Notes under the pieces: model-generated | What the model was told of the DNA's origin: nothing | Seen by the model: the letters and a program-made list of their open reading frames with translations, nothing else | Databases searched by the model: none | Assembly (NCBI GenBank): GCA_963975985.1 | Contig: CAXBIY010000001.1 | Span: forward strand, 179,020-243,019 | DNA: 64,000 nt | Source: an uncultured Gammaproteobacteria bacterium | Lineage (GTDB): Bacteria > Pseudomonadota > Gammaproteobacteria > JABDGN01 | Direction: 5' to 3' | Made by a program: the position numbers and the translations under genes | Part shown: positions 9,975-44,992 of the stretch, piece after piece | How the letters are laid out: every line of letters begins with the position of its first letter | How positions within the stretch are numbered: the first letter of the stretch is position 1

Positions 9975-10128
9975 CTTCGCCCCGCGGCTTGAGCGCGGGA
10001 TCCAGAAGATGTTAGCTATTTTATTTTCCTGGATTCCGTGGTCAAGCCACGGAATGACGTGTTCATTCAGTATTTGTTATGTCGTTCTAACATGTACCGT
10101 CATCCCGCGGCTTGACCGCGGGATCCAG
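9975..10128. repeat. Cluster of three ~30-bp REP-like hairpin units in alternating orientation (BIME-like)
   Basis: Units at 9975-10005, 10029-10059 (inverted variant CTGGATTCCGTGGTCAAGCCACGGAATGACG) and 10099-10128 (GTCATCCCGCGGCTTGACCGCGGGATCCAG). Confidence 0.85.
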
Positions 10129-10135
10129 AGTATCG

Positions 10136-10429
10136 TTAGCCTAGAATACTTTCATATAAATCATTCCAGCTTGGATTGGTTTTTTCAATGAGGGTAACTT
10201 TCCATTGTCGCTTCCACTCTTTTAATCGCTTCTCGCGATGGATTGCACTTTCAGCATTGTCGTGTGATTCATAATACACGAGGTTTTTTACGGCATACTG
10301 CTTGGTAAAACCATCGACTACCGATTGCTTATGTTGCCATATACGTTTTATTAAATTAGATGTCACTCCGATATATATAGTGCCATTTTTTTTACTTGCG
10401 AGGATGTATACAAAAAATCTTTTATCCAT
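10136..10429 (-). CDS. Small GIY-YIG nuclease-superfamily protein (UPF0213/YhbQ-like)
   Basis: FFVYILASKKNGTIYIGVTSNLIKRIWQHK GIY-YIG motif; start set at MDKR because the upstream 18 codons are translation of a REP unit. Confidence 0.75.
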   Translation of the reverse strand: MDKRFFVYILASKKNGTIYIGVTSNLIKRIWQHKQSVVDGFTKQYAVKNLVYYESHDNAESAIHREKRLKEWKRQWKVTLIEKTNPSWNDLYESILG

Positions 10430-10438
10430 ATTATTCTC

Positions 10439-10621
10439 CTGGATTCCGTGGTCAAGCCACGGAATGACGGGGTTGTTTGTCATCCCGCGGCATGACGAGG
10501 TTGATTCAGTATTGGTTAGGTCGTCCCAATATGTATCGTCATCCCGCGGCTTGACCGCGGGATCCAGAGCTGGTTAGCTATTCTGTTTACTTGGATTCTG
10601 TGGTCAAGCCACGGAATGACG
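10439..10621. repeat. Cluster of four REP-like units (two full, one truncated, one variant)
   Basis: Units at 10439-10469, 10479-10500 (truncated), 10538-10567 and 10592-10621. Confidence 0.85.
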
Positions 10622-15580: not shown

Positions 15581-15750
15581 CCCTTGAGGGGCTTTGTTGA
15601 ATAAATCAACTTTTTCAGCTTCGTCATCCCGCGGCTTGACCGCGGGATCCAGTAACTCATTGATTTTTCTGGATCCCGCGGTCAAGCCGCGGGATGACGT
15701 GCTGTAAAGTTGTATAAAAGCTGATTTATTCAACAAAGCCCCTCAAGAGG
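15581..15750. repeat. Composite MITE-like element: outer inverted arms CCTTGAGGGGCTTTGTTGAATAAATCAA flanking two inverted REP units
   Basis: Arms 15581-15608 and 15722-15750 are reverse complements; REP units at 15623-15652 and 15669-15699; a related copy lies at 63850-63956. Confidence 0.8.
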
Positions 15751-20457: not shown

Positions 20458-20500
20458 GTAGGGTGGATAAAAGGTTGAGCGGAGTTCATGCATATCCAAT
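20458..20500. repeat. Partial copy of the family-2 MITE terminus (GTAGGGTGGATAAAAGG...)
   Basis: Matches the left end of the element at 6399. Confidence 0.5.
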
Positions 20501-21345: not shown

Positions 21346-21466
21346 CTGGATCCCGCGGTCAAGCCGCGGGATGACGAGTATTTTACCAAGCCGCGGGATG
21401 ACGAGTATTTTACCAAGCCGCGGGATACTGTTTTTGTCATTCCGCGGCTTGACCGCGGAATCCAGG
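21346..21466. repeat. REP-like cluster inside the yggS-proC intergenic region, with an internal 27-bp tandem duplication (AGCCGCGGGATGACGAGTATTTTACCA x2)
   Basis: Units CTGGATCCCGCGGTCAAGCCGCGGGATGACG and GTCATTCCGCGGCTTGACCGCGGAATCCAGG. Confidence 0.85.
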
Positions 21467-34369: not shown

Positions 34370-35031
34370 CGTGGCAATTGCATTCCACCGAACAACGCTT
34401 AGAATTGACGCATCCCGAACATAACCCTTTTTATTTAGACTTCAGTGAAGGCAAACTCGCCCATCGCTTTCAACAAGGCATTGGTAAAAGTGAGCCATTA
34501 GCCAAAGCCATTGGTGTTAAAAAGAATAATATCCCAACGGTGTTGGATGTCACGGCAGGCATGGGGCGTGATGCGTTTGTCATCGCGTGTTGCGGTTGCC
34601 AAGTGACATTGTTAGAACGATCCTCTGTGTTAGTGTCATTGCTACAAGATGCAATGCAACGTGCACGTCAAGATGAAAATTTAACACCCATCATCGAACG
34701 GATGCAATTAATTGAAGCCGATAGCATTCAATATTTAAATCAACTCACTGAAAAACCAGACGTGATTTATTTAGACCCGATGTATCCCGATCGTAAAAAA
34801 TCCGCATTGGTGAAAAAAGAAATGCGTATCATTCGCGAATTAGTGGGTAATGATCAAGATGTTGAAAGCTTGTTTAATGCAGCATTAGAAAAAGCCGAAA
34901 AACGCGTAGTCGTTAAACGCCCTAAACTAGCGGGTTTTATTGGTGATAAAGAACCTACACACCAAATTACAGGCAAAACTACGCGGTTTGATGTGTATCT
35001 TATCCCTTCTCCCCGCGAGGGGTGTTGTTGA
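34366..35031 (+). CDS. rsmJ: 16S rRNA m2G1516 methyltransferase RsmJ
   Basis: DVTAGMGRDAFV, VIYLDPMYP, KSALVKKEMR and KRVVVKRP collinear with E. coli RsmJ; the last ~8 codons are encoded by a family-3 repeat. Confidence 0.8.
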   Translation: MTWQLHSTEQRLELTHPEHNPFYLDFSEGKLAHRFQQGIGKSEPLAKAIGVKKNNIPTVLDVTAGMGRDAFVIACCGCQVTLLERSSVLVSLLQDAMQRARQDENLTPIIERMQLIEADSIQYLNQLTEKPDVIYLDPMYPDRKKSALVKKEMRIIRELVGNDQDVESLFNAALEKAEKRVVVKRPKLAGFIGDKEPTHQITGKTTRFDVYLIPSPREGCC

Positions 35032-35153
35032 ATAATTCCCCTGTAGGGTGGATAAAAGTGTGAGCGACAGCGAATACATATCCACCAGGGCTCTATGGTT
35101 AACCACTGCTGGTGGATATATCCGCACTTCGTGCGAATTTTTATCCACCCTAC
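35005..35153. repeat. Composite: family-3 hairpin (CTTCTCCCCGCGAGGGG) followed by a full family-2 MITE (35043-35153)
   Basis: Same arrangement as at 44858-44992. Confidence 0.75.
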
Positions 35154-35192: not shown

Positions 35193-35558
35193 TTACATAA
35201 CAGGCAAGCCTGCAGCAACCCAACCCTTAAACCCACCATCCATCGAGATCACATTCGTGTAACCCATAACTTGTAAATTCATCGCCGCTAATGCCGAGCG
35301 ATAACCGCCACCGCAATATAAAATCAAGGTGGTATCCGTCTCCGGCACCATACGTTCAATATCACGCTCAATCACGCCTTTGCCCAGATGTATAGCGTCC
35401 GGCAGATGCCCACTTGCCCACTCACTCTCTTCACGCGTATCGATGAGAATAATATCTTTATCATTATCAAGCAGTTGCTTAGCTTGTTCGATATCGACTT
35501 CTTTGATGTGTTCTTTAGCTTTATTCACTAGGGTTAAAAAACGACTGGCATGTTGCAT
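35193..35558 (-). CDS. Single-domain rhodanese (sulfurtransferase)
   Basis: Active-site loop YCGGGYRS; start chosen at MQHASRF. Confidence 0.7.
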   Translation of the reverse strand: MQHASRFLTLVNKAKEHIKEVDIEQAKQLLDNDKDIILIDTREESEWASGHLPDAIHLGKGVIERDIERMVPETDTTLILYCGGGYRSALAAMNLQVMGYTNVISMDGGFKGWVAAGLPVM

Positions 35559-35651
35559 GTTGATTTCCTTCAAATTAAATGGTGTTATCATTATAGCCTT
35601 GAATAAGTACAATGCCATCTCCACATAGCAATAAATAACCTTGAGAAGCCC

Positions 35652-36923
35652 ATGTCCGAAATGCTACAAGTGCCTTGCCTCACCACCGCTTTAACCGGCC
35701 CACTGCAAACCTTAGAAAAAGTTTTTTTAGACAACCAATGTGAAATTGAAACCTGGTTGCGTGAACAGTTCCGCAAAACACCCGCGCCAATTTATGGTTC
35801 AGTCGATTTACGTAATGCGGGTTTCAAACTCGCACCCGTCGACACGAATTTATTCCCTGCTGGCTTTAACAATTTAAACCCCGAGTTTTTACCTTTGTGT
35901 GTGCAAGCGGCGCAACAAATTGTCGATAGTCAATTGCCCGGCGCAAGTAAAATAGTCTTGGTGCCTGAAAATCATACGCGTAATCACTTTTATTTAGACA
36001 GTGTTGCAGTGTTACAACAAATTTTCACCATGGCCGGTTTTGATGTGCGCATAGGGTCAATGTTAGCCGACCTCACCGAGGCGCAAACCTTTGAATTACC
36101 ATCAGGCAAATCGATTGTGCTAGAACCCTTGCAGCGTGATGGTGATAGCGTGAAGTTGAATGATTTTGTGCCCGATTTAGTGCTTTTGAATAATGACCTA
36201 TCAGGTGACCAACCGGTTATCTTGCAAAACCTTAAGCAACCCATTATGCCGCCGCTTTCATTGGGCTGGTCAACGCGTTTGAAGTCCGAGCATTTTTCTT
36301 ATTACTTTAATGTGGCGGCAGAATTTTGTGAATTGTTTGATATTGATCCTTGGTTGTTAACACCCTTGCATCGTAATTGCGGCAAAATTAATTATATGGA
36401 ACGCGAAGGGGAAGATTGTCTTTATGCCAATTCAACAAAACTCTTCGCTGCCATGAAAGAAAAATACGTTCAATACGGCATTACTGAAAAACCCTTTATT
36501 ATTGTCAAAGCCGATGCTGGTAGTTACGGCATGGGTATCATGACAGCCACTAGTCCGGATGACTTAGTGAATCTAAATCGCAAACAGCGCACTAAAATGT
36601 CGACCACCAAAGGTGGCGAAGGTGTGAGCCGTGTGATTTTGCAAGAAGGCGTTTATACGTTTGAAACGTGGGGTGATGAACAGTCCGTCGCCGAGCCAGT
36701 TGTGTATATGATTGGCCAACATGTTGTCGGTGGTTTTTACCGTGTGCACGGTAAAAGAGGTGTCACTGAAAATTTAAACGCGCCGGGTGCGCATTTTGAA
36801 CCATTGGCTTTTATGAAACCGTGTAACGTGCCAGGTGAGCCTTGTGAAAATCGATTTTATGCCTATGGTGTGGTGGCAAGGTTGGCGTTAGTAGCAGCAG
36901 CTCGTGAATTGGCTGCTAGCTAG
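35652..36923 (+). CDS. gshA: Putative glutamate--cysteine ligase of the rare Acidithiobacillus ferrooxidans type
   Basis: 423 aa, no similarity to E. coli GshA; immediately upstream of gshB. Confidence 0.45.
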   Translation: MSEMLQVPCLTTALTGPLQTLEKVFLDNQCEIETWLREQFRKTPAPIYGSVDLRNAGFKLAPVDTNLFPAGFNNLNPEFLPLCVQAAQQIVDSQLPGASKIVLVPENHTRNHFYLDSVAVLQQIFTMAGFDVRIGSMLADLTEAQTFELPSGKSIVLEPLQRDGDSVKLNDFVPDLVLLNNDLSGDQPVILQNLKQPIMPPLSLGWSTRLKSEHFSYYFNVAAEFCELFDIDPWLLTPLHRNCGKINYMEREGEDCLYANSTKLFAAMKEKYVQYGITEKPFIIVKADAGSYGMGIMTATSPDDLVNLNRKQRTKMSTTKGGEGVSRVILQEGVYTFETWGDEQSVAEPVVYMIGQHVVGGFYRVHGKRGVTENLNAPGAHFEPLAFMKPCNVPGEPCENRFYAYGVVARLALVAAARELAAS

Positions 36924-36960
36924 CGGAATCCTCGCTATGCGCGAATAATGATTTAAATCA

Positions 36961-37030
36961 CCCCTCATCTGCCCAAGGGCATCTTCTCCCCGCGAGGGGA
37001 GAAGGTGGCCCGCAGGGTCGGATGAGGGGG
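36961..37030. repeat. Family-3 palindromic element (CCCCTCATC ... CTCCCCGCGAGGGGAG ... GGCCCGCAGGGTCGGATGAGGGG)
   Basis: Terminal 9-10-bp inverted repeat plus internal hairpin. Confidence 0.7.
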
Positions 37031-37081
37031 GATCAAATAGCGCTGGCGCAGCCATCAACAAATTAAAAGATAGGAAAAATT

Positions 37082-38017
37082 ATGAAACTCGGCATCATCA
37101 TGGACCCCATCGAAGCCATCGACCCCACTCACGACACCAGCTTCACCATGCTACTCGAGGCCCAACAACGCGATTGGCAAATCCACTACCTTCAGCAACA
37201 AGATTTATTCTGGCTCGACGGTAAAGCCTACGCCAATAGCACGCGAATCACTGTCGAGGATAGTGACAACTATTACACTCCCCACGAACAACAGACCATT
37301 GAGCTGAGTGACCTCGACATCATCTTAATGCGCAAAGATCCCCCCGTCGATATCCCTTACATCTATACCACTTATTTCCTAGACCACGCTAAAGCCAATG
37401 GCAGCTTAGTGGTGAATGATCCTGAAGCATTACGTAACACCAATGAAAAGTTCATCATCACGCATTTCCCGCAATGTTGCGCGCCCACCTTAATCGCAAC
37501 CGATAGCAAAACCATTCAATCCTTTTTTGCAGAGCATCAAGATATCATTGTGAAACCATTAGACGGCATGGCGGGTCGCGATGTTTTCCGCGTGCAAGAC
37601 GAAACCACCTTATTAGAAAAAATCGATTACCTAACCCAACAACAAACCTTGCCGTTAATGGCGCAATGTTATCTCCCCGAAATAGCGCAAGGCGATAAGC
37701 GCATCATTATGATCAACGGCGAGCCCATCATGCACGCCTTAGCGCGTTTTCCGGCTGAAGGCAGTGTGCGTGCCAACTTAGCCGCCGGCGGCCGCGGTGA
37801 AGTGATGCCATTAACCGAACGTGAACAATGGATTTGCCAACAAGTCGGCCCGTACTTAAAAGCTAATGGCATCCTCTTTGCTGGGTTAGATGTCATTGGT
37901 GATTATTTAACCGAAATCAATGTCACCAGCCCTACCTGTGTGCGAGAAATCGAAGCCGATGCTGATGAAAAAATAACTCAAACGTTTTTCGATACCCTAG
38001 TTAAAAAATTAAGCTAA
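37082..38017 (+). CDS. gshB: Glutathione synthetase
   Basis: MKLGIIMDPI, ILMRKDPP, KPLDGMAG, GDKRI and TEINVTSPTC collinear with E. coli GshB. Confidence 0.92.
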   Translation: MKLGIIMDPIEAIDPTHDTSFTMLLEAQQRDWQIHYLQQQDLFWLDGKAYANSTRITVEDSDNYYTPHEQQTIELSDLDIILMRKDPPVDIPYIYTTYFLDHAKANGSLVVNDPEALRNTNEKFIITHFPQCCAPTLIATDSKTIQSFFAEHQDIIVKPLDGMAGRDVFRVQDETTLLEKIDYLTQQQTLPLMAQCYLPEIAQGDKRIIMINGEPIMHALARFPAEGSVRANLAAGGRGEVMPLTEREQWICQQVGPYLKANGILFAGLDVIGDYLTEINVTSPTCVREIEADADEKITQTFFDTLVKKLS

Positions 38018-38145
38018 GCACAGCTTTTGTGCAATCTGCTCAATTTGTTTTACATGTGTAATTTTTCTGATAATCTAACCGCAGTTTATTGCATCGAGAG
38101 ATGATGCGATACAATCTTTAGGTATTAACTATTAAGGAGAGTGAG

Positions 38146-38763
38146 ATGAAAAAAACAATGATTGCAGCCGCTGTCGCAACAGCAATGATAATGGGTGGTA
38201 CAGCCATCGCTGCGCCGAAAGTGTCAAGCACTAGCGAATTGCATTGGTATGCAGGTCTTGGTGCCGGTTATTCTTACGTGCAAGATAAGCAATCTCATAC
38301 AATGGATGGCTCACATTATGAAGGCATTCCCGGTGGGCTCGCAGGTAATGTATTTGCCGGCTACAACTTTAACCAGTATATCGGCATGGAAGTCAGTTAT
38401 GATGATATAGCTAACACCTCAACCTATGTAGCCGATGGCGATGGCACATTAGCGGGTGGCACTAAATATAATGGCATCGGTTTTGGATTGGTGGGTAACA
38501 CACCTGCACTACACGGCATGCGCCTTTTCGTCAAACTGGGCGGTGAATATTTGCACGGTAGATCGTTCGACATGAATGCAACAACCAACAGTGTAGGCCT
38601 AGCCTACGGCGCGGGTATGAGTTATAACATTACTCAGCATCTCATCGCACGTGGAGAATGGAAGCAAGTGTTGCAGCAAAAAAATGTGTCAACCAACATA
38701 GATACAACAGTGACAGTTCCACAAATGAATCTATTTTTAGCTCAATTGGCTTATTCATTCTAA
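38146..38763 (+). CDS. Small outer-membrane beta-barrel protein (OmpA-N/Opa-like), paralog 1
   Basis: Signal peptide, alternating amphipathic strands, C-terminal LAYSF. Confidence 0.7.
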   Translation: MKKTMIAAAVATAMIMGGTAIAAPKVSSTSELHWYAGLGAGYSYVQDKQSHTMDGSHYEGIPGGLAGNVFAGYNFNQYIGMEVSYDDIANTSTYVADGDGTLAGGTKYNGIGFGLVGNTPALHGMRLFVKLGGEYLHGRSFDMNATTNSVGLAYGAGMSYNITQHLIARGEWKQVLQQKNVSTNIDTTVTVPQMNLFLAQLAYSF

Positions 38764-38795
38764 TTGATGTCCTGCTACGGTTTTACGTGCACAAC

Positions 38796-38883
38796 CCATG
38801 GGGGGGTGCACGTGAAATCGAAGCCGGTTCTGATGAAAAAATAATCAAAATAGTCTTTGATGCCCTAGTTAAAAAATCAACCT
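38796..38883 (+). repeat. Duplicated copy of the gshB 3' end (REIEAGSDEKIIKIVFDALVKK vs gshB REIEADADEKITQTFFDTLVKK), left by a segmental duplication
   Basis: Nucleotide collinearity with 37940-38017; followed by a duplicated intergenic leader and an OMP gene. Confidence 0.7.
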
Positions 38884-39014
38884 AAACATATATTGCTTAC
38901 AAATTAACCAGACTATTCCACATACGTTATTTTTATGATAATCTAATCTCGCTTCGTTGCACCCAGGAGACGGTGCGATGAAATATCGAAATATTAATCT
39001 TAAAGGAGAGAGAG

Positions 39015-39740
39015 ATGAAAAAGACAATTATTGCAGCAGCTGTAGCAACAGCAATGGTAATGGGTGGCACGGCAATCGCTGCGCCGAAGGCAATGGCATC
39101 TGGTTCGTCATTTACAAAAGGTAATGGCTGGTTTGTCGGTGTGGGTGCAGGTTATTCTAATGTGCAGTCAGGCGTGACAAAAGTAGCGGCTAGTGATATC
39201 GGTGGCGCTTTTAGTGCTAACCAAGTTCAAGGCGGCTTAGCAGGTTCAATATTTGGTGGTTACATGATCAACAAATATTTAGGTTTTGAAATGAGCTATG
39301 ATCGTTTTGCTAATACAACGCAAGCTTCAAGTGACACTATGATAACTTCTGATGGCCCTGTTACAACGCTTGAGGGTGTGTCAACTAGCATGCAAGGCAT
39401 TGGATTTGGTTTGGTCGGCTATACACCAGCATTTCACGGCCTAAGTGGCTTTGTTAAAGTTGGTGGCGAATATTTGCATTCTGATAACACGCTTGGTGGT
39501 GTTTCTGGTGATGCGACGGTGGGCGGCTATAGTGCCTTTACGACAGATTCTGTTGCTTTCACTTACGGTCTGGGTGTTAACTATGCGTTTACTGAGCATT
39601 TATCAGCCCAAGCTGAATGGAAACAAATTCTGCAACAAAGCGGTGTGAAAACAAGTTTCGAAAATTCTGAGGGTCAGGCATTGTCTGGTACTATCCCACA
39701 AATGAACTTGTTCACAGCTAATTTAGTTTACAAATTCTAA
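39015..39740 (+). CDS. Small outer-membrane beta-barrel protein, paralog 2
   Basis: N-terminal 25 aa nearly identical to paralog 1; C-terminal LVYKF. Confidence 0.7.
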   Translation: MKKTIIAAAVATAMVMGGTAIAAPKAMASGSSFTKGNGWFVGVGAGYSNVQSGVTKVAASDIGGAFSANQVQGGLAGSIFGGYMINKYLGFEMSYDRFANTTQASSDTMITSDGPVTTLEGVSTSMQGIGFGLVGYTPAFHGLSGFVKVGGEYLHSDNTLGGVSGDATVGGYSAFTTDSVAFTYGLGVNYAFTEHLSAQAEWKQILQQSGVKTSFENSEGQALSGTIPQMNLFTANLVYKF

Positions 39741-39759
39741 GTCAAGTTGTTCAAACAAA

Positions 39760-39790
39760 AAAGCGGGTTTTTAACCCGCTTTTTTTATAA
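39760..39790 (+). terminator. Rho-independent terminator AAAAAGCGGGTTTTTAACCCGCTTTTTTT
   Basis: Perfect stem GCGGGTT/AACCCGC followed by a T-run. Confidence 0.8.
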
Positions 39791-39856
39791 CTTGCAACTG
39801 AGCCCTAACCTTTATATCATTCCCCTATCCTATAACGCACGCACAGAGAGAACCTC

Positions 39857-40510
39857 ATGAAACGCATTCTTCCCTTGATTTTGGCTTGTTCAATCGCTAG
39901 CACAGCATTGGCGGCGGATGATAACTATAGCGCGCCGGCTAGCAATAATCCCGATCAGAGCCAAGCGCAAGACCAGTCGCAGATGCAAGCGCCTAATCAG
40001 CCAGATGAAAATGTGGCCTTGCAAAATCAGCTATCGAAAATTCATGCCGAAGCGAATTTGGGTTGGAGTGCCACGCATTTTCATGGTCTCAATAACAATG
40101 GGTTATTTGGCGGTGGTGTATCAGCGGGTTATGACTTGTTGCCTAACTTAGCGTTTGATGTCGGCTACCTAGGCCAAAAAGATGCGACCAATCGAGAAGG
40201 CGGCGTTATCAGTGAAAGCGCGATTAACATGTTATTGGTGGGTAGTACGCATTTAGTGGATCACTTCTCCGTGTTTTTCAAAATGGGTAGCAGCTATATG
40301 TTAGCCACCTTCAAACAGCCCGCCATCGATACGCAAAAAATGCACCAATGGGTCTTTTCCTACGGCATGGGCTTAACTTATGATTTCACCGGACATTTCT
40401 ATGGGAATTTCCAATGGTTCCACACCCAAGGTAAAGCCGGTAGCTTTGCCAATGGCCGCGGTATCCCCAAATCTGATTTCTATGGCTTGGGCCTTGGCGC
40501 AAGATTGTAA
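39857..40510 (+). CDS. Outer-membrane beta-barrel protein with Q/N-rich region, paralog 3
   Basis: Signal peptide; same beta-strand pattern; ends GLGARL. Confidence 0.55.
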   Translation: MKRILPLILACSIASTALAADDNYSAPASNNPDQSQAQDQSQMQAPNQPDENVALQNQLSKIHAEANLGWSATHFHGLNNNGLFGGGVSAGYDLLPNLAFDVGYLGQKDATNREGGVISESAINMLLVGSTHLVDHFSVFFKMGSSYMLATFKQPAIDTQKMHQWVFSYGMGLTYDFTGHFYGNFQWFHTQGKAGSFANGRGIPKSDFYGLGLGARL

Positions 40511-40516
40511 CCTAAA

Positions 40517-40575
40517 GTAGGGTGGATAAAAGTTCGCGCGAAGCGCGGATAGTTCCACCAGCAGTAGCGGGTGAT
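40517..40575. repeat. Partial family-2 MITE (GTAGGGTGGATAAAAGTTCGCGCGAAGCGCGGATAGTTCCACCAGCAGTAGCGGGTGATGG)
   Basis: Left half of the element seen at 44884. Confidence 0.6.
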
Positions 40576-40624
40576 GGTAAGTAGGTCATACTCAGCCATC
40601 AACCATTTTATTGAGAGACAACAC

Positions 40625-41290
40625 ATGTTAAAAAAGATCACCTTAATTTCGTGCTTAACGGTTTTAACCGCAACAGCCTTAGCTGATACCGCACCAACCT
40701 ATGCGGGCGACGATGGCATCAGCGGTTATTATGTTGGCCTCAGCGCCGGTTATGCGCTCAACCATTTCTCATCTGACAATAGCTTTTTTGGTAACAACAA
40801 TTTGTGGCAAGCTCACAACCAACACGACGGTGGTTTCACTGGCCGTTTGTCCGGTGGTTATAATTTCAATGAATACTTCGGCGTCGAAGTCGCTTATGAT
40901 TATTTGCCCAGTTCCAAAGCGACATTAAGCAATGGCCACGGCAGCTCAAGCGTAAGCAGTTATGATTTAGATGCCATGTTAGTCGGTCGCGTGCCTTTCG
41001 TGAATAATTTCGATTTTTTTGTGAAAGCCGGCATGGCGTATATCTCATCAGAAATTGATTCAACCGATTACGCAAAGTCCTATGCTCAAATTTACCGACC
41101 TGCGTTTGCTATCGGTTGGGATTACCGCATCAATACAAGCTTCATGGTGAATGTGCAATGGCTCCATACCTTAGGTGATGGCAATGCCTACAATGGCGGT
41201 GCGCAACAAGGCCAAGTCACCAATGGTGGATCGTTTACGAAAATACCGCCGTTTGATACATTTACGGGTGGCGTGGTTTATCGGTTTTAG
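40625..41290 (+). CDS. Small outer-membrane beta-barrel protein, paralog 4
   Basis: Start chosen at MLKKITLIS (signal peptide); C-terminal VVYRF. Confidence 0.65.
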   Translation: MLKKITLISCLTVLTATALADTAPTYAGDDGISGYYVGLSAGYALNHFSSDNSFFGNNNLWQAHNQHDGGFTGRLSGGYNFNEYFGVEVAYDYLPSSKATLSNGHGSSSVSSYDLDAMLVGRVPFVNNFDFFVKAGMAYISSEIDSTDYAKSYAQIYRPAFAIGWDYRINTSFMVNVQWLHTLGDGNAYNGGAQQGQVTNGGSFTKIPPFDTFTGGVVYRF

Positions 41291-44857: not shown

Positions 44858-44992
44858 CCCCTTCTCCCTTGGTGGGTGAGATTGTAGGGTGGATAAAAAT
44901 TCGCGCGGAGCGCGGATATATCCACCAGCGGTGGTAAATGATAGAGCTCTGGTGGATATGTATTTGCTGTCGCTCACACTCATCCACCCTAC
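44858..44992. repeat. Composite: family-3 hairpin followed by a full family-2 MITE (44884-44992)
   Basis: CCCCTTCTCCCTTGGTGGGTGAG then GTAGGGTGGATAAAAATTCGCGCGGAGCGCGGATATATCCACC...CATCCACCCTAC. Confidence 0.75.

Follow-up and report, generated by a model that had tools for sequence, protein, structure and literature searches.

The ompA mRNA of Escherichia coli is stabilised by a stem-loop at its very 5' end, an established property reportedly described by Emory, Bouvet and Belasco in 1992 and by Arnold, Yu and Belasco in 1998 (both cited in PMC7509114). The locus analysed here lies in a 64-kb window (the whole stretch of DNA under analysis) and resembles this element, hp1, in several respects: a stem-loop is found a few nucleotides from the (here inferred) mRNA 5' end of a gene for an OmpA-type outer membrane protein (OMP), a strong Shine-Dalgarno sequence follows, and conservation concerns the structure and not the sequence (here with p ~0.01 from n = 2 sequences). 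It differs in that the leaders have no sequence similarity to ompA and are ~63 nt long compared to 133 nt in ompA, and in that the OMPs are barrel-only proteins of 205-241 aa that lack the periplasmic OmpA domain. Two further kinds of described system bear on the locus. In enterobacteria, OMP mRNAs are classic targets of small RNAs such as MicA, which acts on ompA (PMC7509114), and template switching in quasi-palindromes creates and repairs stems, which can yield paired changes without selection (Monttinen & Loytynoja 2022, PMC8794818).

The genes and gene fragments at the locus are the following:

37082-38017, + strand: gshB (glutathione synthetase), intact; Pfam GSH-S_N E 5.7e-43, GSH-S_ATP E 2.6e-68
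37938-38017, + strand: last 80 nt of gshB, parent of the relic (repeat D1)
38146-38763, + strand: OMP1, 205 aa, predicted 8-stranded OmpA-TM-like beta-barrel with signal peptide; PF13505 E 5.9e-15, PF01389 E 2.6e-12
38806-38885, + strand: non-coding relic of the 3' end of gshB (26 codons and the stop); 64 of 80 nt as in the parent
39015-39740, + strand: OMP2, 241 aa, predicted 8-stranded paralogue of OMP1; E 5e-54
39757-39785, + strand: intrinsic-terminator-like hairpin that ends the duplicated pair, its perfect 13-bp arms lying between runs of A and T
39857-40510, + strand: OMP3, an older and more distant paralogue (20-25% identity) without the leader
40625 (probable start)-41290, + strand: OMP4, also an older and more distant paralogue (20-25% identity) without the leader

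A tandem duplication of the gshB tail, leader and OMP gene had been proposed in the first-pass annotation of this DNA, and it is fully supported by our analysis. Two direct repeats were recovered, D1 (37938-38098 / 38806-38966, 71% identity) with a start-to-start distance of 868 nt and D2 (38098-38219 / 38967-39088, 82% identity) with one of 869 nt. The copies lie head-to-tail, the order tail-leader-OMP being present twice, and a blastn comparison of unit A with the window gave 76% identity across 280 nt (E 1.9e-51). The second OMP gene noted behind the diverged leader copy is indeed present and 49% identical to OMP1. This arrangement is not an assembly artefact, since it is reproduced by an independently assembled ENA contig (L006), the only other contig with the locus, which is 99.9% identical over window positions 35462-39424, a stretch that takes in the relic and the beginning of OMP2; the two differ by a 3-nt indel in the middle of gshB. 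A unit of ~868 bp was copied. It began at codon ~286 of gshB, spanned the gshB-OMP spacer and the OMP gene, and would have ended ~42 nt beyond the OMP stop; the outcome was an intact gshB, then OMP1, then a gshB tail that is truncated and non-coding, and finally OMP2. As in generic tandem duplications that leave a truncated flanking gene at the junction, the left breakpoint lies within a gene (gshB), the 5' copy keeps this gene intact, and the 3' copy opens with its decayed tail. Unlike a generic duplication scar, the relic is unusually well preserved compared to the neighbouring non-coding DNA, and its first 22 nt pair with an inverted copy of themselves. The duplication with its gshB relic and its paired-change hairpins is real but fairly ordinary, consisting of known kinds of feature. 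When the sequence that closes copy 1 (38764-38805) was aligned locally with the region of the OMP2 terminator, the match did not exceed that of shuffles (p = 0.155-0.30); the idea that these 42 nt are a remnant of that terminator split by an 8-nt insertion was rejected (p = 0.155, not significant).

The gshB tail had previously been placed at 38796-38883. Its homology to gshB is significant, but it becomes detectable from 38806 onwards, and the earlier start was ~10 nt too far to the left. The relic translates as AREIEAGSDEKIIKIVFDALVKKST and the gshB tail as VREIEADADEKITQTFFDTLVKKLS, each followed by a stop, and in tblastn searches with GshB the junction fragment was found above chance, at E 1.9e-7 for the intergenic stretch and 3.4e-5 for the whole window. 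A tblastn hint of gshB homology as far left as 38748 did not rise above shuffles (p = 0.50) and was rejected. The same applies to the possibility that the relic is still coding within the ORF 38658-38885, its differences from the parent being spread 4/6/6 over the codon positions.

On the basis of their domain scores, OMP1 (56.3 and 47.3 bits) and OMP2 (48.5 and 54.0 bits) are assigned to the OmpA-like transmembrane 8-stranded beta-barrels (PF01389 / PF13505 test, gathering cut-offs 28.7 and 21). They are not OmpA or AcfA proper, since the NCBIfam OmpA and AcfA matches are far below the cut-offs. The two are each other's sole close relatives: in searches of 5.8 billion proteins by word index and of 1.84 billion representatives exhaustively, the next best match had 34% identity and only 2 proteins reached E<=1e-30, while a metagenome search with the OMP alignment found nothing. 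A comparison of OMP copy number in related genomes had been envisaged; the gshB relatives recovered by a GshB search of genome contigs are 50-54% identical, and none of them has an OMP downstream of gshB, the genes found there being apbE-, tonB-, yqgE-, ruvX- and pyrR-like. The array is therefore lineage-specific, and since the locus occurs in no related genomes, the case cannot gain further strength computationally. The hairpin behind OMP2 was recognised as inverted repeat I20 and through weak terminator-type sRNA matches in Rfam.

Each OMP gene is preceded by a set of expression signals, of which the promoter-like element of OMP1 and the two Shine-Dalgarno sites were read from the sequence:

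38049-38076, + strand: promoter-like element (inferred) of OMP1, TTTACA, 16-nt spacer, TG-n-TAATCT
38087-38111, + strand: leader hairpin A, 9 bp (UAUUGCAUC / GAUGCGAUA) with 7-nt loop GAGAGAU; MFE -9.8 kcal/mol, z -3.97
38134-38141, + strand: Shine-Dalgarno AAGGAGAG of OMP1
38917-38944, + strand: promoter-like element (inferred) of OMP2, TCCACA, 16-nt spacer, TG-n-TAATCT; homologous to 38049-38076 at an offset of 868
38953-38982, + strand: leader hairpin B, 11 bp with 8-nt loop CAGGAGAC; MFE -14.8 kcal/mol, z -5.9
39003-39010, + strand: Shine-Dalgarno AAGGAGAG of OMP2

The two copies have diverged unevenly. The mature part of the OMPs has a pS of 0.73 compared to 0.38 for the signal peptide, by which measure the duplication is old and the synonymous sites of the mature OMPs are saturated. 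Between copies A and B, identity is 80% in the relic, 45% from the stop to the -35, 79% in the promoter-like element (compared to 45-60% in its flanks), 72% in the stems, 55% from the hairpin to the Shine-Dalgarno, 93% in the block from the Shine-Dalgarno to the ATG and 88% in the signal peptide. TGATAATCTAA is identical in both promoter-like elements, which a consensus promoter scan did not list. The relic, with its 80% identity compared to 45-55% in the adjacent spacers (Fisher p = 0.0009), looks to have been kept beyond neutral expectation. Neither the uneven divergence nor the conservation of the relic had been remarked upon in the first-pass annotation, and the same holds for the junction hairpin described below. 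This mosaic is consistent with discrete selected elements, and most likely reflects an old tandem duplication after which the promoter-like element, the 5'-proximal hairpin, the Shine-Dalgarno and the signal peptide were conserved. Each OMP copy would have kept its own expression module, comprising an extended -10 promoter-like element, a stem-loop 2-4 nt past the inferred start, a strong Shine-Dalgarno and a near-unchanged signal peptide, while the mature barrels diverged to synonymous saturation.

If the ~280 nt at the 5' end of the unit (relic, leader and signal peptide) had later undergone gene conversion between the copies, the similarity of this part, and to some extent the uneven divergence, would be accounted for without selection, the relic then being younger than the OMP bodies. 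This is somewhat unlikely, even though the JC distance of the relic is only ~0.23 against the pS of 0.73 in the mature OMPs and the pS of the signal peptide is also low. A single conversion tract would not make the similarity alternate every 10-30 nt (80, 45, 79, 60, 72, 55, 93, 88%), nor does the contrast between the relic and its adjacent spacer fit such a tract.

A 5-bp stem kept by paired substitutions, GCATC/GATGC in one leader and GCACC/GGTGC in the other, had been reported earlier; these stems were located at 38091-38095/38103-38107 and 38959-38963/38972-38976. The stem and its paired changes are real, but the 5 bp are the core of the longer 9-bp (A) and 11-bp (B) stems, 9 of the 11 pairs of hairpin B (38955-38963 / 38972-38980) being homologous to hairpin A. 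When both leaders were folded, the stems formed in each MFE structure, whichever sub-window was used. Through 5 substitutions, all transitions, the 9 homologous pairs have stayed intact: from A to B, two pairs changed from U-A to C-G and one from A-U to G·U, and none was broken. Stem positions 1 and 8 (38087/38111 and 38094/38104 in copy A) hold the compensated pairs, and position 4 between them has a U·G wobble that is the same in both copies. As a control, the 3' partner was shifted by 1-3 nt, which left at most 6 of 9 pairs; the pair counts and this control were scripted, since MAFFT had put the loop indel inside the stem. Given five substitutions, the chance of keeping all pairs is P 0.003-0.026 for these n = 2 sequences, and the region-wide chance probability is 0.008-0.016 (overall ~0.01, a post hoc figure). 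The covariation is stronger than first noted, with two compensated pairs and one G·U and no broken pair, but it comes from two sequences and amounts to at most two events without replication. For this reason, and because homologous leaders beyond copies A and B were absent from the genome, protein and metagenome collections searched, it is likely, rather than demonstrated, that the 5' UTR contains an RNA structure under selection. A search of metagenome DNA with a pattern that combined promoter and hairpin returned two chance matches, both inside coding DNA, and the leaders of OMP relatives with 26-34% identity (L007, L008 and L009/L010) contain no comparable hairpin. The sense strand folds better than the antisense strand (-9.8 vs -7.7 kcal/mol for hairpin A; -14.8 vs -9.7 kcal/mol for hairpin B, where the antisense strand forms just the 5-bp core), owing to the G·U pairs.

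We favour, at about even confidence, the reading that both OMP copies have kept, since the old tandem duplication, an expression module with an ompA-like 5' mRNA-stabilising stem-loop. By analogy, the leader hairpin probably acts like the 5'-terminal stem-loop of E. coli ompA. It would act as RNA, from the sense strand, and would most likely shield the OMP mRNA from 5'-end-dependent decay (RppH/RNase E). The number of unpaired nucleotides between the inferred start (about 38083 in A and 38951 in B) and the stem, 4 in A and 2 in B, fits the geometry of such a stabiliser. What the sequence shows is the duplication with its relic and the hairpins with their compensated pairs; promoter, transcription start and stabiliser role are inferred, and the placement of the hairpin in the 5' UTR depends on the first of these. 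Since gshB is not followed by a terminator, its transcript could extend into OMP1, and the leader hairpin would then be internal. Should the hairpin be such a stabiliser, protection of abundant OMP mRNAs in the manner of ompA would reach an uncultured marine gammaproteobacterial lineage and barrel-only OMPs, and the paralogue pair would represent a natural compensatory-mutation experiment. Current understanding would remain unchanged; the locus serves as a tidy case study and is no discovery.

It is unlikely that the leader hairpin is functionless, with paired changes that arose by chance or by intrastrand template switching in a quasi-palindrome. There are only two sequences, the nominal probability of ~0.01 was computed post hoc, and the same locus has a second, template-switch-like inverted repeat at 38771-38827. 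However, the G·U pair produced by the third change is not a templated complement, and the stem is conserved amid flanks of 55-60% identity. Moreover, with compensated pairs at positions 1 and 8 around the unchanged wobble at position 4, a single switch tract must have skipped the wobble, or two events were needed. Another regulatory role, in which a protein or small RNA binds the hairpin or the hairpin switches translation, with the loops (GAGAGAU and CAGGAGAC) being recognised, seems improbable as well. Both loops are purine-rich and Shine-Dalgarno-like with GAGA in common, and MicA on ompA provides a precedent for OMP mRNAs targeted by small RNAs (PMC7509114). Against this, the loops differ in sequence and length between the copies, and no Rfam family matches the leaders (38018-38145 and 38886-39014, + strand) even at E<=10, only terminator-like matches at 39716-39871 being returned. 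A fold that sequesters the Shine-Dalgarno by pairing with an upstream UCUUU (leader A, 38115-38121 / 38132-38138) was also considered and rejected, as it is not conserved in leader B. That the inverted repeat works as DNA, as an operator immediately behind the promoter to which a dimeric transcription factor binds, is very improbable despite its position at ~+4 to +29 from the inferred start, which is common for repressors, and the Fur-box-like core read in the conserved TGATAATC, because T·G oppositions pair only as sense-strand RNA, the antisense/DNA-type symmetry is poorer, and the half-sites of one factor should be conserved rather than co-vary. A Fur box in TGATAATC was rejected, about 9-10/19 positions of the 19-bp Fur consensus being matched by eye.

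The second inverted repeat (I6) lies at the junction of the two units:

38771-38827, + strand: junction hairpin with 13-nt loop; MFE -36.6 kcal/mol, z -6.15

This hairpin is not an intrinsic (Rho-independent) terminator, having a strong stem and no U run: GGUUCUGAUGAAAA follows it in place of a U-tract, and the terminator scan did not list it. It is possible, though rather doubtful, that the gshB fragment was exapted, the junction hairpin replacing the lost terminator or stabiliser of OMP1 and the rest of the relic being kept as upstream regulatory sequence. The duplication would have parted OMP1 from its original terminator, now behind OMP2; a template switch just after the OMP1 stop would then have inverted the first 22 nt of the relic to give a 20-bp hairpin, and the remainder of the relic would have been kept at 80% identity as regulatory sequence that the coding end of gshB had contained from before. 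The relic and the junction hairpin would in that case show duplication debris recruited into RNA structure, a clean case of a new RNA structure and a cis-regulatory element derived from a pseudogene fragment, alongside a 5' hairpin whose compensatory changes between the paralogues went step by step from U-A through U·G to C-G. As in described template-switch hairpins (PMC8794818), the junction arm is a reverse-complement copy of adjacent sequence; unlike in those cases, there is no ancestral sequence here, and selection for pairing would give the same pattern. The 22 nt of the 5' arm (38771-38792) repeat the start of the relic (38806-38827) in inverted form, matching its reverse complement at 18 of 22 positions compared to 14 of 22 for the parent, with only 8 such loci in the 64 kb, and they include the three derived substitutions of the relic.

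The first-pass annotation correctly proposed that the gshB tail, the leader (the gshB-OMP spacer) and an OMP gene had been duplicated in tandem. A repeat search found direct repeats at 37938-38098 and 38806-38966 (71% identity, 868 nt apart) and at 38098-38219 and 38967-39088 (82% identity, 869 nt apart). When unit A (gshB 3' end, leader and OMP1) was compared to the window by blastn, 280 nt aligned at 76% identity (E 1.9e-51), with an extra block of 85 nt within the OMP bodies. OMP1 and OMP2 share 49% identity (E 5e-54). The features concerned are as follows.

35652-36923, + strand, gshA (PF08886)
37082-38017, + strand, gshB, downstream of gshA
38146-38763, + strand, OMP1, small outer-membrane beta-barrel gene (PF13505/PF01389)
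39015-39740, + strand, OMP2, small outer-membrane beta-barrel gene (PF13505/PF01389)
39757-39785, predicted canonical intrinsic terminator, 3' of OMP2
39857-40510, + strand, OMP3, small outer-membrane beta-barrel gene (PF13505/PF01389)
40625 (probable ATG) to 41290, + strand, OMP4, small outer-membrane beta-barrel gene (PF13505/PF01389)

The predicted second copy of the gshB tail was also borne out. This relic (38806-38885) is identical to 37938-38017 at 64 of 80 nt, with the stop codon in register, and tblastn with GshB recovers it above chance (E 1.9e-7 with the spacer as target, 3.4e-5 with the whole window). Its start had been placed at 38796, about 10 nt too early, as homology 5' of 38806 is no better than that of shuffles. 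The 16 differences from the parent are spread 4/6/6 over codon positions 1/2/3, which rules out that the relic evolves as coding sequence. An assembly artefact is likewise ruled out, because an independent ENA contig (L006) is 99.9% identical over 35462-39424, the sole difference being a 3-nt indel in mid-gshB; the 396-kb source contig is present in Tara, ENA and NCBI data. Tandem paralogue arrays with a relic at the junction are of a known kind.

All four OMP genes exceed the gathering scores for PF13505/PF01389, and their scores for NCBIfam OmpA and AcfA are far under the cut-offs. The mechanical ORF of OMP4 (40571-41290) opens at GTG 40571, but the true start is probably 40625, since the signal peptide (MLKKITLISCL...) begins at that ATG. 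Among species-representative genomes, the nearest gshB relatives belong to uncultured Gammaproteobacteria (50-54% identity). The closest of these (L001, L003, L005) have apbE-, tonB-, yqgE-, ruvX- or pyrR-like genes and no OMP 3' of gshB, which makes the OMP array specific to this lineage. Here the four OMP genes come next after gshB, then an uncharacterised ORF of 211 aa and, at a greater distance, metK-ahcY-rsmE; compared to the nearest available genomes, this lineage has a rearranged local gene order. Beyond OMP1 and OMP2 themselves, which alone reached E≤1e-30, a word-index search of 5.8 billion proteins and an exhaustive HMMER search of 1.84 billion representatives gave nothing above 34% identity. 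The closest outside relatives lie between icd and mnmA or 3' of rpsT, and their leaders contain no comparable hairpin. Metagenome scans by protein and by promoter-hairpin DNA pattern gave no real match, and neither leader matched Rfam at E≤10. The best outside match to an OMP1/OMP2 profile (P0011, 871 aa, E 1.7e-24) has four tandem OMP-barrel-like modules and may represent an array of OMP genes in another organism that was fused or miscalled.

The divergence between the copies shows that the duplication is old. Nei-Gojobori counts on the OMP1/OMP2 codon alignment gave pS 0.73 (saturated) and dN 0.45 for the mature part, and pS 0.38 and dN 0.04 for the 25-codon signal peptide. Identities between copies A and B along the unit are listed below.

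Relic, 80%
Stop to -35, 45%
-35 to -10, 79%
-10 to hairpin, 60%
Hairpin stem arms, 67% and 78%
Hairpin to SD, 55%
SD to ATG, 93%
Signal peptide, 88%

Conserved and near-random blocks alternate on a scale of 10-30 nt, a pattern more readily explained by purifying selection on discrete elements than by a single gene-conversion tract between the copies, although conversion may have contributed. The relic differs at 16 of 80 positions vs 17 of 31 in the adjacent spacer (38886-38916, 45% identical; Fisher p = 0.0009). This excess conservation could reflect constraint (for example on an upstream regulatory element or a hairpin arm) or local gene conversion.

Each leader contains a hairpin; whichever sub-window was folded, it formed part of both the MFE and the centroid structure. 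In hairpin A, 38087-38095 pairs with 38103-38111 (9 bp, loop GAGAGAU, -9.8 kcal/mol, z -3.97); in hairpin B, 38953-38963 pairs with 38972-38982 (11 bp, loop CAGGAGAC), its 10-bp form having -14.8 kcal/mol and z -5.9. The 5-bp stems with paired substitutions noted earlier are thus present in every MFE fold, but are only the cores of these 9-bp and 11-bp stems. The nine homologous pairs carry five substitutions, all transitions, and none is broken: pairs 1 and 8 change from U-A in A to C-G in B, pair 2 changes from A-U to G·U, and pair 4 is U·G in both. Given five substitutions in 18 stem positions, the probability that all nine pairs survive is 0.003-0.026, depending on transition bias (background transition fraction 37/63). 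When the whole leader was evolved neutrally in simulation, 0.8-1.6% of runs retained any of its hairpins with at least 2 compensated pairs. With the 3' partners slid by 1-3 nt, no more than 6 of the 9 pairs remained in either copy. Antisense folds are weaker (-7.7 kcal/mol for A, -9.7 for B, the latter retaining only the 5-bp core), the wobble pairs making the hairpin strand-specific. Taken together, the folds, compensated pairs, slid-partner control and strand asymmetry of these two sequences indicate RNA-level constraint on the sense strand.

Upstream, the two copies share an unchanged stretch of 11 nt, TGATAATCTAA, which reads as a putative extended -10 (TG-n-TAATCT), 16 nt 3' of TTTACA in A and TCCACA in B. 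A simple consensus promoter scan does not list this site, and we therefore infer the promoter from conservation. Transcription would start about 7 nt downstream of the -10, at A38083 and G38951, leaving 4 and 2 unpaired nt before the stems of A and B. The 5'-terminal stem-loop of E. coli ompA is well established as a shield of its mRNA against RNase E cleavage that depends on the 5' end (Emory, Bouvet & Belasco 1992; Arnold, Yu & Belasco 1998; both listed in PMC7509114). Given the putative start, its geometry resembles that of hairpins A and B, and this analogy favours a role as 5' stabiliser of the OMP mRNA, with the strong conserved SD (AAGGAGAG) as a possible second protective element. Such 5'-proximal stabilising hairpins on OMP mRNAs are of a known kind. 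Rival explanations are a quasi-palindrome that has no function and persists through template switching (PMC8794818), and another regulatory RNA role, in which the purine loops with their likeness to an SD would act. A DNA operator, which the inverted repeat could also suggest, is disfavoured by the wobble pairs and covariation. A functional RNA in the 5' UTR, as suggested earlier from the covariation, is plausible (at about the 1% level), on the strength of two sequences and a promoter that is itself inferred.

A further hairpin, at the junction between OMP1 and OMP2 (38771-38827, -36.6 kcal/mol, z -6.15), begins 15 nt past the OMP1 stop. The relic contributes its first 22 nt as the 3' arm; the 5' arm matches the reverse complement of the relic at 18/22 positions vs 14/22 for parental gshB, and thus matches the three derived substitutions of the relic. 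Across the 64-kb window just eight loci hold an inverted repeat of such quality and spacing, and those of the others that match best fall on palindromes of the repeat families. The absence of a U-tract 3' of the hairpin rules out a canonical intrinsic terminator. The hairpin may have arisen by template switching, or its pairing may have been selected because it stabilises OMP1 at the 3' end or insulates it; either or both would fit.

Other repeats were observed in the window. Intergenic elements of about 100-115 nt (6399-6511, 35043-35153, 44884-44992; solo copies at 20458 and 40517) have inverted GTAGGGTGGATAAA sequences at their two ends (8 matches, 0.33 expected) and look like MITEs or REP elements; a half-element with a strong fold (-38.1 kcal/mol) lies in the OMP3-OMP4 spacer. 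A second family consists of G+C-rich palindromes with GTCATCCCGCGG (16 matches, 0.16 expected) at 632-660, 10099-10549, 15623-15698, 21364-21447, 53192, 59895-59992 and 63880-63955, some with near-perfect arms of 32-34 nt. A nested palindrome lies in the gshA-gshB spacer (36957-37033; arms of 18 nt outside and 15 nt inside). It may terminate gshA or be a further repeat element, and its inner part has a partial second copy near 35006. Finally, 1933-1998 is an AT-rich near-perfect palindrome with 32-nt arms (97% complementary) and a 2-nt spacer.
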